Source of the DNA: a virus | Lineage: Duplodnaviria > Caudoviricetes | IMG/VR virus record: IMGVR_UViG_3300020045_007716 | Location: 1 to 32,630 of that record | Length of the DNA: 32,630 nt | Direction: 5' to 3' (one strand) | Part shown: one piece after another, positions 9,251 through 32,273 of the stretch | Layout of the letters: every line of letters starts with the position of its first letter | Position numbering within the stretch: position 1 is the stretch's first letter | The notes under the pieces: generated by a model | Told to the model about the DNA's origin: nothing | Seen by the model: the letters and a program-made list of their open reading frames with translations, nothing else | Databases searched by the model: none | Program-made: the position numbers and the translations under genes

Positions 9251-9356
9251 TTCAAAATCCTCAAAAATGTTCAATCCTAAAAAGGGTTGTGGCAGAGGGT
9301 AGGATTAATTCCCTCGTTCGGCCGCTAAACCTAGCCACAAAACTATTATACGCTTT

Positions 9357-20477: not shown

Positions 20478-20640
20478 ACTTGTATTCCTTCTTTAATTCC
20501 CGATCCTGAAATAATGCGATAAAATCCAAATCTACATCATCCACAATAATATAAAAATGTTTAATTAAACAAACATCATTATACACAAAAATCAATATAT
20601 TTTCTTATCACCCGCAATCATTGCACCGTTATTCCAATGC

Positions 20641-20856
20641 TGTCAATATTTTTTACAAACGTAACTTACTGATTATATTGATAACTAACTATCTCATGCA
20701 ACATATAGTATACATGCGCTTAATATAACACAAGAATACTGTCAGGATTTTTTACAACTATAAGTTATTGATATTTCGTTTGTTTGTTTTTTACCTACTA
20801 CATATAGTATCCATGTAGCCGATCACATACTAGCGAGGTGTCAGGATTCTTTACAA
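20641..20856. repeat. Degenerate 99-bp-period tandem repeat (about 2.2 units)
   Basis: TGTCAR(T/G)ATTYTTTACAA at 20641, 20740 and 20839; ACATATAGTAT(A/C)CATG at 20701 and 20800. Confidence 0.85.
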
Positions 20857-20929
20857 TTTATGGCATTTAACCTGCCACGAAATGACAGATATTTTTTATC
20901 TTATTGATTTATATATTTTTATAATTAGT

Positions 20930-20945
20930 TGGCATTAGTAATGCA
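20930..20945 (+). promoter_or_regulatory. Sigma54-type -24/-12 promoter candidate
   Basis: TGGCATTAGTAATGCA has GG-N10-GC spacing; IHF-like TATCTTATTGATT about 30 bp upstream. Confidence 0.6.
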
Positions 20946-20987
20946 ATATACTAAGTGAAAGCAACTTTTAACTACACGGAGACGAAA

Positions 20988-21197
20988 ATGAACGACTATT
21001 CGGGATTAGAAACTTCTAACGAAATAATTTTAGCACTTGAGGAGCGGTATTCAGGCAAAGCATGCGATGAAGGCTCTGAATCCAATTGCGAATGGGCTGA
21101 TCCTAGCGACATGTCTGGAATTATTGCGCGGGCATGGGATCTTGCCGAACCTGAAACAAATAAACTGTTTTGGGGGGTGGAGTCATTCGAGAAATGA
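20988..21197 (+). CDS. Hypothetical acidic early protein
   Basis: GGAG RBS before MNDYSG. Confidence 0.6.
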   Translation: MNDYSGLETSNEIILALEERYSGKACDEGSESNCEWADPSDMSGIIARAWDLAEPETNKLFWGVESFEK

Positions 21198-22504: not shown

Positions 22505-22662
22505 AATCGGCATTAGTACGTGACGCGGAATGGTTGATAGAAAATGGCCTGAATAATATTGATCCGGCTAGGTTTTGCGACTGGGTGACCAGGCTGTGGC
22601 ATGACGGAATGTCGGAAAATGAGGCAAGGCTTTTTGTTTTGGAGGAAATGGTCAATGAGTAA
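22501..22662 (+). CDS. Hypothetical protein (53 aa)
   Basis: MKSALVRDAEW...; ATGA-coupled; absent from the ORF track. Confidence 0.55.
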   Translation: MKSALVRDAEWLIENGLNNIDPARFCDWVTRLWHDGMSENEARLFVLEEMVNE

Positions 22663-23068
22663 GAATTTAACAATGTGTAATAACAGTACATTAGACGCGA
22701 TGGTGACGGCATTATCTGTTTTGAGTAAAATATATTCGTCATCATCAGTCGATGATTATGGCAATGTAGTCATTGGTGTGAATTCGTATCCGGATTTTTT
22801 AAAAAAAATTGTGGTGGAGATGGAGAAGCTAAAGAGAATCATTGCGTCTTCGTTGCTAACCGGGCGCGGCCCTGCGAATGAACAAAACTCTCCCGCTGTT
22901 GCGGGTCCGGTTGAGCGCCGGGTTAGGCGTGAATTAACCGCAGAGCAGATATTAAAAGCCATCTACGCTTATGGATATACTGCCGACGACATAGTAAATA
23001 TTGGGATGGATGTCATCGTCGATATAACAACAGCAGTAGAACAAGCGCATGGAATATCAGGCGCCTAA
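22655..23068 (+). CDS. Hypothetical fusion protein that reads through an eroded attC-like site
   Basis: GGAGG RBS before MSKNLT; internal LTGRG...GPVERRVRR is encoded by site A; stop codon lies in site B. Confidence 0.6.
   Translation: MSKNLTMCNNSTLDAMVTALSVLSKIYSSSSVDDYGNVVIGVNSYPDFLKKIVVEMEKLKRIIASSLLTGRGPANEQNSPAVAGPVERRVRRELTAEQILKAIYAYGYTADDIVNIGMDVIVDITTAVEQAHGISGA
22855..22928 (-). repeat. attC-like site A (left core box lost)
   Basis: GCT-AACCGG...T-CCGGTT-G-AGC-GCCGG-GTTAGGC. Confidence 0.75.
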
Positions 23069-23149
23069 CGCAAAGCTAACCGGGCGCACTAATGACGACA
23101 ATTAAACAATACGCCGCTTCCAGCGCTCCGGTTGAGCGACAGGTTGTGC
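23063..23149 (-). repeat. attC-like site B
   Basis: GCCTAAC-N5-GCT-AACCGG-GCGC...GCGC-T-CCGGTT-G-AGC-N5-GTTGTGC. Confidence 0.85.
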
Positions 23150-23313
23150 GTGAACTTAAGCCATGCCCTTTTTGCGGCGGGCAAGCAAGGCTTTTTACTG
23201 ATGGTCTAACCACAATTATTTGTAAGGATTGCAATATGACAGTTAGCAACTTTGAGCGGTCAATAATAAAACTTACTGACCAGTGGAATAGACGAATTAG
23301 CCATGACGCATAA
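23092..23313 (+). CDS. Lar-family restriction alleviation protein (cassette B-C)
   Basis: ELKPCPFCGG...C.DC...WNRR signature. Confidence 0.8.
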   Translation: MTTIKQYAASSAPVERQVVRELKPCPFCGGQARLFTDGLTTIICKDCNMTVSNFERSIIKLTDQWNRRISHDA

Positions 23314-23393
23314 CGCAAAATTAACGCGCGCCCAGTTGGACGTTGAACGAAACCGCGATGCTGAAGGGCGTCGCGTTGAATGACGGGTTAGCC
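23308..23393 (-). repeat. attC-like site C
   Basis: GCATAAC-N5-ATT-AACGCG-CGCCC...GGGCG-T-CGCGTT-G-AAT-N5-GTTAGCC. Confidence 0.88.
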
Positions 23394-23425
23394 GTTTTAG
23401 CACTAAAAATATTTTGATTTAAGTA

Positions 23426-23453
23426 TTGACTTTAATCTAATTAGGTATATACT
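23426..23453 (+). promoter_or_regulatory. Sigma70 promoter inside cassette C-D
   Basis: TTGACT-N16-TATACT with CTAATTAG palindrome in the spacer. Confidence 0.6.
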
Positions 23454-23502
23454 ATATTCAGCGTTAAGGGATTGGCTCTTAACAATAATTGAGGATAGTA
23501 AA

Positions 23503-23820
23503 ATGAAAGCAATAAAAGTAACTTTAATACAAGATGCTTACTTAGATGATGATGGAGATTACACTGCATTAGCAATATTAAGTAAAAATGAAATTGATAA
23601 TACTGATGACGAAGAGTCAGGTTATCCGGTTAATTATGCAAAAGTGCGGTGGAATACAGTTGATGGATTTGATGGTGAAGACGAAAGCAACGCTTGTGAT
23701 TGGTCAAATCCAGAAGGCGTTAAATTTAACGGGCAATGGATAGCTGATAAATTTGAAGGTGTTAATAATTTTAAAAATATGAAATTTGAATACTTTAACA
23801 CTGACGGAAGTCGGCTTTAA
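23503..23820 (+). CDS. Acidic hypothetical protein (cassette C-D)
   Basis: GAGG RBS, 105 aa, DESNACDW motif. Confidence 0.7.
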   Translation: MKAIKVTLIQDAYLDDDGDYTALAILSKNEIDNTDDEESGYPVNYAKVRWNTVDGFDGEDESNACDWSNPEGVKFNGQWIADKFEGVNNFKNMKFEYFNTDGSRL

Positions 23821-24011
23821 TGTCAGGAGGAAAAAGGGAAGGAGCTGGCAGGAAGCCAGCTCACCCGCTTTTAAAAAAGGAAATGATAAGCCTGAAATTA
23901 CCGCGATGGTTAATTGATAGGCTTGACGAAGAACCGGAAAGCAGAGCAGTGATAATTGAAGCGGCTTTGGGCGAAAAACATGGCTGGACACCTCCGGATG
24001 TAGGCGGCTAA
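23820..24011 (+). CDS. Ribbon-helix-helix/CopG-like DNA-binding protein (cassette C-D)
   Basis: GGKREGAGRKP followed by ISLKLPRWLIDRL..SRAVIIEAAL; stop codon in site D. Confidence 0.7.
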   Translation: MSGGKREGAGRKPAHPLLKKEMISLKLPRWLIDRLDEEPESRAVIIEAALGEKHGWTPPDVGG

Positions 24012-24089
24012 CGCCTAATTAAGGCGGCGCACTTTGATTTTTAACAACACGGTGAGCTTGAAGCGCTCGCCTTGAATTAACTGTTAGGC
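24006..24089 (-). repeat. attC-like site D
   Basis: GGCTAAC-N5-ATT-AAGGCG-GCGC...GCGC-T-CGCCTT-G-AAT-N5-GTTAGGC. Confidence 0.88.
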
Positions 24090-24101
24090 ATTGGAGATAA
24101 C

Positions 24102-24404
24102 ATGAGCGGAAGAATACTAACATGCGTTTATTGCGGCCACGAATATCCGCAGGACACCCCGGCGCACGGCAGCGAAGTGCTGACCGAGCACATAAAGATT
24201 TGCGAGCGTCACCCAATGCGCAAAGCCGATGCCGATATTACTCTGCTGCGCTCTGCGCTGTCCGGATTGATCGGTGCGGACACCGAAGCCGAATTGAGGC
24301 AAATGGAAGCCGCGATGCGCCTGCTGCCAGCGCCGGATGCAGACAAGGCGGTTTCCATCAACGCGATTCATGCGCTGCTGGCGACTATGCCGCCTAACGC
24401 TTAG
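24102..24404 (+). CDS. Zn-binding hypothetical protein (cassette D-E)
   Basis: GGAG RBS; CVYC...H...C..HP; visibly GC-richer than its neighbours; ends PPNA* across site E. Confidence 0.75.
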   Translation: MSGRILTCVYCGHEYPQDTPAHGSEVLTEHIKICERHPMRKADADITLLRSALSGLIGADTEAELRQMEAAMRLLPAPDADKAVSINAIHALLATMPPNA

Positions 24405-24428
24405 ATATACACCCAATAGGTGTATAAC
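24392..24428 (-). other. Terminal site E of array 1 (attI-like or degenerate attC)
   Basis: GCCTAAC-N5 followed by short palindrome TATACACC-CAATA-GGTGTATA; no right GTT box. Confidence 0.5.
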
Positions 24429-24458
24429 AAATTATTATGTTTTTTGTACTGGATCAAA

Positions 24459-24683
24459 ATGAATGAAATAGTCACTTGCGGCCAATGCCGTCATTTTATC
24501 CGGCCTGAACCCAGATTCGAACCGAACAGCATGGGCGCTTGTAGTCTTTATGACGACTGGAAAGCCAAATGGGGCGGTAAAACTATCCCCATTCAGGCCG
24601 ATAATCGGGTTAATGCTGAGCTGGGGAACAAGATGTTTTTTACGGATATTGAGCGGTATTGTAAAAAATTTGTTGCAAAATAA
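24459..24683 (+). CDS. Cys-containing hypothetical protein
   Basis: MNEIVTCGQCRHF...GAC...RYC..F. Confidence 0.65.
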   Translation: MNEIVTCGQCRHFIRPEPRFEPNSMGACSLYDDWKAKWGGKTIPIQADNRVNAELGNKMFFTDIERYCKKFVAK

Positions 24684-31003: not shown

Positions 31004-31039
31004 AATTACGTCATGAACATTCTATGGATTTTGAAATTT

Positions 31040-31056
31040 AATGACGGGTTATACAA
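31040..31056 (-). repeat. Remnant right end of an attC-like site (F0)
   Basis: AAT-GACGG-GTTATACAA; complementary to TTGTATAAC at 31184-31192. Confidence 0.55.
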
Positions 31057-31191
31057 ATGGCTATTGATTTTAACGATTGGGAATACTACAAAAATACCCT
31101 AAAACCTGTTTTTGGGAACCGAAAAAACTGGTATAGATTTTGTATTATCATGCATAGATTGAGGATGAAAATAATGTTTGGTATTGTATAA
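31057..31191 (+). CDS. Hypothetical protein (44 aa, cassette F0-F)
   Basis: MAIDFNDWEYY...; TAA falls inside the left box of site F. Confidence 0.5.
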   Translation: MAIDFNDWEYYKNTLKPVFGNRKNWYRFCIIMHRLRMKIMFGIV

Positions 31192-31274
31192 CGCAGAGCT
31201 AACCGGGCGCGGCACGGAAAGCTGAGCAATGAATGAAGATTGTGGCCGCGCTCCGGTTGAGCGTAGGGTTATAC
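31186..31274 (-). repeat. attC-like site F
   Basis: GTATAAC-N5-GCT-AACCGG-GCGCGGC...GCCGCGC-T-CCGGTT-G-AGC-N5-GTTATAC. Confidence 0.88.
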
Positions 31275-31510
31275 AATATTTATGGGGAAACATAATGAAA
31301 ATTAAAAAAATTGAGAGTCAAAGCCGCCGCGATTTTTACGCAATTTACACATGTGAGCATTGCGGACATGAAGAACGCGGAAGCGGGTATGACGATGACC
31401 ATTTCCATAGGAATGTTATTCCAGCGATGAAATGTAAAAAGTGCAGCAAGACGGCTGCCGAAGATTACAGGCCGATAGGGACAAAGTATGCTGCGCATGA
31501 AGTTGTATAA
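31229..31510 (+). CDS. Zn-ribbon hypothetical protein (cassette F-G); alternative start at 31295
   Basis: RRDF.A.Y.CEHCG...GYDD..FH..VIP.MKC..C; stop codon in site G. Confidence 0.75.
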   Translation: MNEDCGRAPVERRVIQYLWGNIMKIKKIESQSRRDFYAIYTCEHCGHEERGSGYDDDHFHRNVIPAMKCKKCSKTAAEDYRPIGTKYAAHEVV

Positions 31511-31588
31511 CGCAAAAGTAAAGCGCCCGTGAACGAAGCCAAAAAATGCGCTAACGGTAAGCGGGTCGCGTTGACTGACGGGTTATGC
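31505..31588 (-). repeat. attC-like site G
   Basis: GTATAAC-N5-AGT-AAAGCG-CCCG...CGGG-T-CGCGTT-G-ACT-N5-GTTATGC. Confidence 0.82.
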
Positions 31589-31768
31589 TGCATAGAATTA
31601 ACAAAGCCAATGATCGACGCTTATAACGAGCAATTGGCTGAAATATTGGCTTTCCATGCCGCAAATTTCAACGTAAGAAAGGCAATTGACGAACAAATGA
31701 AAAAACTGGCTTTTGACGCTTACACCCAGGGTGTTTTAGATGGGCAAAAATTAGTGGTTAAAACATGA
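31529..31768 (+). CDS. Hypothetical protein (cassette G-H)
   Basis: GTG start inside site G; ATGA-coupled to the next ORF. Confidence 0.55.
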   Translation: MNEAKKCANGKRVALTDGLCCIELTKPMIDAYNEQLAEILAFHAANFNVRKAIDEQMKKLAFDAYTQGVLDGQKLVVKT

Positions 31769-31917
31769 CCGCGTTTTTTTGGTTTTTAATTGGGGTAAAT
31801 GTCGGTTATTTATTAACAGGCTTTAAATTCGTGCGAAATGCGAATGAAATACAAAGAATTGAGTTTTTCGGCAAACTTTACAAGGTTTTGCACGATAAAG
31901 ATTGGCATGGGACATAA
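31765..31917 (+). CDS. Small membrane protein (50 aa, cassette G-H)
   Basis: MTAFFWFLIGVNVGYLL...; TAA inside the left box of site H. Confidence 0.55.
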   Translation: MTAFFWFLIGVNVGYLLTGFKFVRNANEIQRIEFFGKLYKVLHDKDWHGT

Positions 31918-31980
31918 CGCTGGAGGTGAGGCGACTGGCGCGGCTTTATGCGACAGGTCGCCTCGACCGTAATGTTATGA
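31912..31980 (-). repeat. attC-like site H
   Basis: ACATAAC-N6-GGT-GAGGCG...T-CGCCTC-G-ACC-N5-GTTATGA. Confidence 0.8.
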
Positions 31981-32110
31981 ACGGAGGTTGATATGGAGCG
32001 GGTTTTTTTGGAGAACCCGCATGGCGTGCATGGGTACAGATTTTCCGCACTGGTTGTCGGGCGGCAACCAGTTGTATAGCACCTTACGTTGTTAGATTGT
32101 GGTTATACAG

Positions 32111-32248
32111 ATGATTGACACTCGGTTTTGCATGAGATGCAAGGGTAATTTTATATACGCATACAGCGGTATATTAAAAAAAATGGTTTGCTCTAACTGT
32201 CAGCGCGCCGCGTTGGATGCTGGTCGTAAATTGAGCAAAAACGATTGA
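32111..32248 (+). CDS. Small Zn-finger protein (45 aa)
   Basis: CMRC...CSNC; absent from the ORF track. Confidence 0.55.
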   Translation: MIDTRFCMRCKGNFIYAYSGILKKMVCSNCQRAALDAGRKLSKND

Positions 32249-32273
32249 TGTATAACAGGTAAAATTGTAAACA

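Follow-up and report, generated by a model that had tools for sequence, protein, structure and literature searches.

Integrons are seen as bacterial tools. Lately they have also been viewed as stores of anti-phage defence genes, as set out in the available text of a recent report (10.1101/2024.07.02.601686). The closest systems described in phages are clusters of attC sites lacking intI (CALINs): the available part of Qi et al. (2023, PMC9892861) counts 17 of them in 10,705 genomes, proposes that a host integrase acts on them and records that IntI1 recombined five of six attC sites from phages other than ours. The novelty that an earlier note on this DNA attached to attC sites in a phage was thus overstated, since such sites were already published. 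Like these CALINs, the locus presented here consists of attC clusters without intI, and DNA methylase cargo, found in theirs, also occurs in a relative of our phage. Phage TJE1 (one of three phages tested in that study and the only one that we checked) differs from our locus in having the normal layout, the bottom strand of its three sites being minus while its genes lie on plus. The attI sites in the available text belong to temperate phages carrying intI, and in one such prophage an attI heads a CALIN; gene reversal, start codons within sites and exchange between phage relatives are not described there.

The sedentary chromosomal integrons of Gallionellaceae (IntI, TIGR02249) share with our locus the attC family, an attI-like motif, the top-strand order of attI and attC and the complementarity of inner boxes, but they differ in carrying intI beside attI, in having their genes on the top strand and in the centre of the attI motif. 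IntI also places cassettes outside integrons, at short GWT-type attG sites, according to the accessible text of bioRxiv 10.1101/2022.09.11.507474; an insertion of that kind could explain the end of our second array, whereas the end of array 1 is no bare GWT site but a conserved attI-like element. A literature search for a reversed layout or for a phage attI without intI, conducted outside most subscription journals, yielded Qi et al. (2023) only. Phage CALINs are already known, and the new part, as far as the literature searched extends, is the reversed layout together with a phage-borne candidate attI without intI.

The window analyzed here is the whole virus record of 32,630 bases, which is linear and has a CheckV completeness estimate of 47%. 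Structural genes occupy the minus strand up to ~20.5 kb, and beyond that point the plus strand carries small early genes and replication genes (helicase, NinB, primase, Erf, resolvase). At 20500-21000 there is a divergent AT-rich region where the cumulative GC skew turns, a candidate control region or origin. A long plus-strand open frame at 1-1060 converges with the late genes and overlaps the next ORF (weak PHROG match, E 0.004), and an Rfam int-alpA match on the minus strand at 9272-9341 reaches 32.1 bits, below the gathering score of 35.8. A distant blastn search of INPHARED phages gave no match to 22600-24500, and none of the relatives sought via the helicase was confirmed. A complete relative of 39.7 kb (G001) shares stretches that are 80-92% identical to the window. 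We read array 1 (Table 1), with a probability of roughly 0.75 and from sequence comparison, as an integrase-less, reversed integron that would be shuffled by a host IntI.

attC sites of the two arrays

In each of sites B, C and D nine of nine arm positions pair, and the plus-strand 3' arm has one surplus G and one surplus T; these sites, unlike site A, have R and L boxes with an AAC/GTT core and spacers of 5-6 bases. A scan (AAC, spacer, 3+6 paired bases, one extra base) disclosed a fourth 9/9 site at 31186-31274; the site at 31505-31588 has 8/9 arm pairs, and that at 31912-31980 was added once a 6-base spacer was allowed. Thirty dinucleotide shuffles of the window contained no 9/9 site and a mean of 0.4 8/9 sites per shuffle. 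A covariance model was built from bacterial attC only, taken from 20 Gallionellaceae stretches upstream of intI (51 of 67 sites aligned, duplicates and sites over 100 bases being dropped), and was run on the window, a check of a kind that had been proposed earlier. It detected six sites, all with the attC top strand on minus, at 28.1-43.4 bits in array 1 and 35.9-39.1 bits in array 2, the best background score being 11.8 bits. Against that background site A scores 12.2 bits and, with its crossover box lost, is eroded as had been supposed. The extrahelical G and T stand on plus in all six intact sites, the same pattern that bacterial bottom strands show, and are kept while the arm sequences vary between sites. 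The attC identity of B, C, D and the three sites of array 2 is supported, and the common architecture first noticed in B, C and D stands. With three intact sites each, both arrays are CALINs as defined in PMC4889954.

The observation that each right box is complementary to the left box of the next site also holds. In viral loci, all four variable bases match in 32 of 53 such inner pairs and in 9 of 53 pairs formed by the two boxes of the same site, and the corresponding figures in bacterial arrays are 34/37 and 2/37. Predicted folding varied among the sites of array 1. Compared with shuffles, only D stands out in folding energy (z -2.66; A -0.74, B 0.07, C -0.24). The predicted probability of the recombinogenic fold was 0.026 for B, 0.25 for C and 0.65 for D in the array form, and 0.42, 0.40 and 0.70, respectively, in modelled circles; for site B the prediction differs little between plus and minus strand.

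Table 1. Features of arrays 1 and 2 in the window (for attC sites and the attI-like element, the strand given is the top strand; crossovers are predicted)
Feature	Positions	Strand	Details
137-aa ORF	22655..23068	+	in-frame fusion of upstream gene and cassette-A gene across site A
attC site A, eroded	22842..22928	-	crossover box (left box on plus) lost; 12.2 bits
attC site B	23063..23149	-	bottom strand plus; 41.0 bits; crossover 23068^23069
Cassette B gene, Lar-like restriction alleviation protein, 73 aa	23092..23313	+	PF14354; phrog_599
attC site C	23308..23393	-	43.4 bits; crossover 23313^23314
Sigma-70-like promoter match, within cassette C	23426..23453	+	consensus match only, 10/12
Cassette C gene 1, 105 aa	23503..23820	+	acidic, no family
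Cassette C gene 2, 63 aa	23820..24011	+	stops on TAA of site D; no library match
attC site D	24006..24089	-	28.1 bits, z -2.66; crossover 24011^24012
Cassette D gene, 100 aa	24102..24404	+	viral family of unknown function
attI-like element closing array 1	24392..24428	-	core box, L box, short inverted repeat; crossover 24397^24398
attC site, array 2	31186..31274	-	39.1 bits, 9/9
attC site, array 2	31505..31588	-	35.9 bits
attC site, array 2	31912..31980	-	38.5 bits; 6-base left spacer
End box, array 2	32250..32256	-	20 bases before resolvase start codon, also in G001

Two statements of the earlier note on the cassettes apply in part. Upstream ORFs do end at the left-box TAA of sites B (the fused 137-aa ORF), C (the Lar-like gene) and D, but site A is read through and the ORF of cassette D stops 6 bases past the terminal box. 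A shift in GC content between units is seen for C and D (cargo G+C 0.36 and 0.57), but not for A against B (0.42 and 0.41). The in-loop ATG of site A is out of frame with the cassette-A gene, and the body of the site looks chimeric, its left part resembling that of viral locus L018 and its right part that of L190. A 76% identical relative of the cassette-A gene has an intact site in L018/L189; in L018 it is preceded by this site and followed by another kind of site body. The Lar-like protein matches Pfam PF14354 with 45.7 bits (cut-off 28.6), and its start codon lies within site B. For the promoter match in cassette C, 14 sigma-70 matches of the 10/12 level were found in the region and 12.2 were expected. 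The second gene product of this cassette is one that we take to resemble small ribbon-helix-helix regulators, and the Atlas yielded no function for the cassette C and D proteins. A unit located elsewhere in G001 (L085 2567-3070) resembles window 23401-23460 (promoter, acidic ORF, small regulator-like ORF) and has no evident attC sites.

Array 2 (31030-32256) is inverted, with eroded half-sites near 31040 and at 32072-32116; eroded sites also occur in G001, where the array has the same flanks and different cassettes. Its end box is not of the attI type found in array 1 and could be a secondary site resembling attG. A third array is present in G001 (L085 12700-15750); it has about ten units, one carrying a DNA methylase (PF01555), and is closed by an attI-like element. 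The corresponding place lies past the end of our contig, so that the window phage may have such an array too.

Candidate attI and integrase search

The box at 24392 had been taken for the last attC box of array 1; it belongs instead to an attI-like element (24392-24428), which the earlier note missed. Reading this stretch as a short attC was rejected, as its arms fail the attC pairing pattern and the covariance model gives it no score. Of 30 Gallionellaceae loci, 16 carry a similar motif ~125 bases upstream of intI, and a matrix built from those 16 scores the element at 29.8 bits on the minus strand (maximum in 20 shuffles 14.7). The plus strand reaches 25.4 bits because of the internal inverted repeat, but without the GTT core. 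The element recurs at the downstream array end in G001 (twice), G002 and G003, the latter two sharing little with the window apart from site bodies. Among 40 viral loci picked by the attC pattern alone, 7 (6 distinct) score at least 20 bits, all on the expected strand and side, and in 0 of 11 phage cases was an attC found beyond the element within 1 kb. Its box matches the inner box of the preceding site at 4/4 bases in five of the 11 phage cases and at 3/4 in another five; the box of the bacterial motif matches the first attC at 4/4 bases in two of eight loci and at 3/4 in five. The centre of the element has 5 bases in most phage copies vs. 6 in all 16 matrix loci, and the base after AACG is mostly T in Gallionellaceae and C in the phage sites. 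The window copy carries one extra spacer base, as does 1/16 of the bacterial copies. These comparisons make 24392-24428 a likely candidate attI.

Directly after the element of L087/L188 (G002) come a phage integrase of 385 aa, in converging orientation, and an attachment stretch resembling a tRNA; this integrase is not an IntI (23 bits vs. a cut-off of 265). In L146 (1748-2540), L147 and L176 the attI-like motif is present and no intI occurs in the sequence examined; neighbouring ORFs in L146 and L176 are normally oriented, and these two are probably bacterial arrays. In L045, L046, L054 and L059 the relative of the D gene ends at AAC, and the short elements next to it are not attC but may represent attI of other kinds. 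In L114, a locus of the Gallionellaceae family, the stretch upstream of intI presumably resembles a class 1 integron platform; the remaining 29 loci do not look like this.

Bacterial copies of the motif were sought more widely. The exact phage-type motif gave 15 matches in all genome representatives, none with attC alongside, and these look like chance matches. One match, in the Gallionellaceae locus L090, was considered as an attI next to intI and rejected, since the motif lies within a hydrogenase gene and intI is on another contig; the motif was then found by accident in a real integron of the same genome, which makes Gallionellaceae a comparison group reached by chance and not a host call. 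A class-wide pattern search matched 5 of 401 genomes, with no intI in the locus of the four new matches, and the four intI loci of those genomes have upstream sequences of other kinds. A metagenome pattern scan gave seven matches (four chance-like, two within phage-like DNA and one heading normally oriented ORFs), with no intI seen near them. Altogether, the genome representatives, the 401 genomes of the class and the metagenomes provided no bacterial example of the exact phage form adjoining intI.

The contig, at its 47% completeness, yielded no IntI or other tyrosine recombinase, and the intI gene of a complete integron was thus not found in it. The earlier note had left the choice between a host IntI and a recombinase encoded outside the window. 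The first is favoured, and a phage recombinase is disfavoured, because a tyrosine recombinase is absent from the complete G001 and none of five additional phage records reached the IntI cut-off; with no integrase found in the contig, a host IntI likely performs excision and insertion. IntI is common in at least one family of possible hosts, being present in 140 of 251 Gallionellaceae genomes.

Gene polarity and cassette exchange

The extra G and T on plus mark this strand as the attC bottom strand. The Lar-like gene and the other cargo genes lie on it, reading towards the attI-like element, and the cargo is therefore reversed relative to bacterial cassettes, a reversal that the earlier note had left unstated. 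In a complete integron the cassette genes occupy the top strand and are transcribed from Pc at attI, unlike in array 1. In 48 gaps of bacterial arrays adjoining intI, the longest ORF between sites lies on the top strand in 38, on the bottom strand in 4 and is tied in 6, while 52 gaps of viral loci L001-040 gave 31 bottom, 10 top and 11 ties. Both scored gaps of array 1 were ties in this crude test, so that polarity there rests on the Lar match and on homologues.

Comparison of relatives, also proposed earlier, supports crossover at AA^C and exchange of cassettes between phages, in line with the covariance model. G001 has the genes that flank array 1 on both sides but lacks all cargo of cassettes A-D; the two sequences become homologous again at 24395, which is the AAC of the attI-like element. 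The window unit 31036-31185, from array 2, is found within array 1 of G001. L043 and L046 carry relatives of cassette D that are identical to each other from AAC to AAC, with unrelated DNA beyond both ends, and the pairs L010/L035, L026/L039 and L016/L027 each have an identical body and 150 bases of cargo behind unrelated upstream DNA. The D gene has 43 relatives in viral contigs, seven of them with an inverted attC just upstream; our own scan found none at the other 36, nor at any of 11 (distant) relatives of the first C gene. Since most relatives lack the site, the C and D genes are ordinary phage genes that are packaged as cassettes in some lineages. The D gene also occurs with several site bodies, up to 94% cargo identity being combined with 52% body identity. 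Together with the chimeric site A, this is unexplained by plain bottom-strand recombination; an occasional top-strand crossover or homologous exchange by the Erf system would explain such swaps.

Homologous recombination could be taken further, the attC-derived repeats being shuffled mainly by the Erf-like annealing protein, NinB and resolvase of the phage through short body homology, with no IntI. In its favour, the window contains Erf and NinB genes, the bodies of sites from different phages agree at 72-89%, and both the hybrid look of site A and the occurrence of genes with more than one body fit it. We nevertheless consider this explanation rather unlikely, as identical cassettes end at AAC with only a few shared bases past it, the attI-like core at the window/G001 breakpoint has no homology with attC bodies, and the extra G and T persist in arms of varied sequence.

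Erosion of A and of several sites in array 2 and G001, and the poor fold of B in the array form, would suit an inert remnant, in which pieces of a host integron were acquired once and are decaying, their sites no longer recombining. Cargo of phage type in reversed orientation speaks against it, as does the finding that 0 of 137 phage cassette starts matched bacterial integron loci in the small bacterial set compared, a sample that hints at a phage cassette pool separate from the bacterial one. The presence of 100% identical cassettes in unrelated contexts implies recent movement, and we hold an inert remnant to be decidedly improbable. That the hairpins are kept mainly as RNA elements coupling translation or processing of small early genes is very improbable: it is the mRNA strand that folds, and the sites contain start as well as stop codons, but sequence and extra-base position match bacterial attC, gene content changes at the core boxes, the attI-like element has no evident RNA role and Rfam gave no relevant family for the array 1 region, with one match at E 0.93.

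Proposed mechanism and its meaning

If array 1 is a reversed integron served by a host IntI, each plus-strand unit would open with the C of an AA^C box, continue with a site body followed by its gene, and close with the AA of the box after it; in this layout the body, often with the start codon, precedes its gene. Host IntI would fold and cut the plus strand and excise circles of body plus gene during infection. These circles would go mainly into the attI-like element that closes the array downstream, or else into other attC sites. Growth would occur downstream and decay upstream, where A would have lost its crossover box and its gene become fused to its neighbour. Expression would depend on the phage early transcript, perhaps with the promoter of cassette C, and on no integron Pc. 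Homologous recombination within site bodies probably acts too. Observation covers the anatomy and polarity of the sites, the likeness to attI, the exchanges ending at AAC in relatives and the failure to find an IntI; the enzyme, its present-day activity, the direction of growth and the route of expression are parts that we infer.

On a wider scale, and with the balance only slightly in its favour, many unrelated phages may share a pool of their own, made of mirror-image integron cassettes of ordinary phage genes, using a copy of a host attI as landing pad and hijacking host IntI to trade counter-defence genes (Lar-like, DNA methylases). A phage attI would escape standard tools, since most integrons have no known attI (PMC4889954). 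Cassette creation is a process of unknown mechanism (PMC4889954), and as the same phage genes exist both free and in cassettes with different site bodies, the step that creates cassettes may be visible here; such genes offer a handle on how cassettes arise. A bottom strand on the lagging-strand template favours excision, according to the available text of PMC5371416, and the reversed layout would place it there if replication and transcription proceed in the same direction at this locus. If the reading of array 1 as a reversed integron is true, phages use a host enzyme for site-specific exchange of accessory genes, which would be a route to mosaicism beside homologous recombination.
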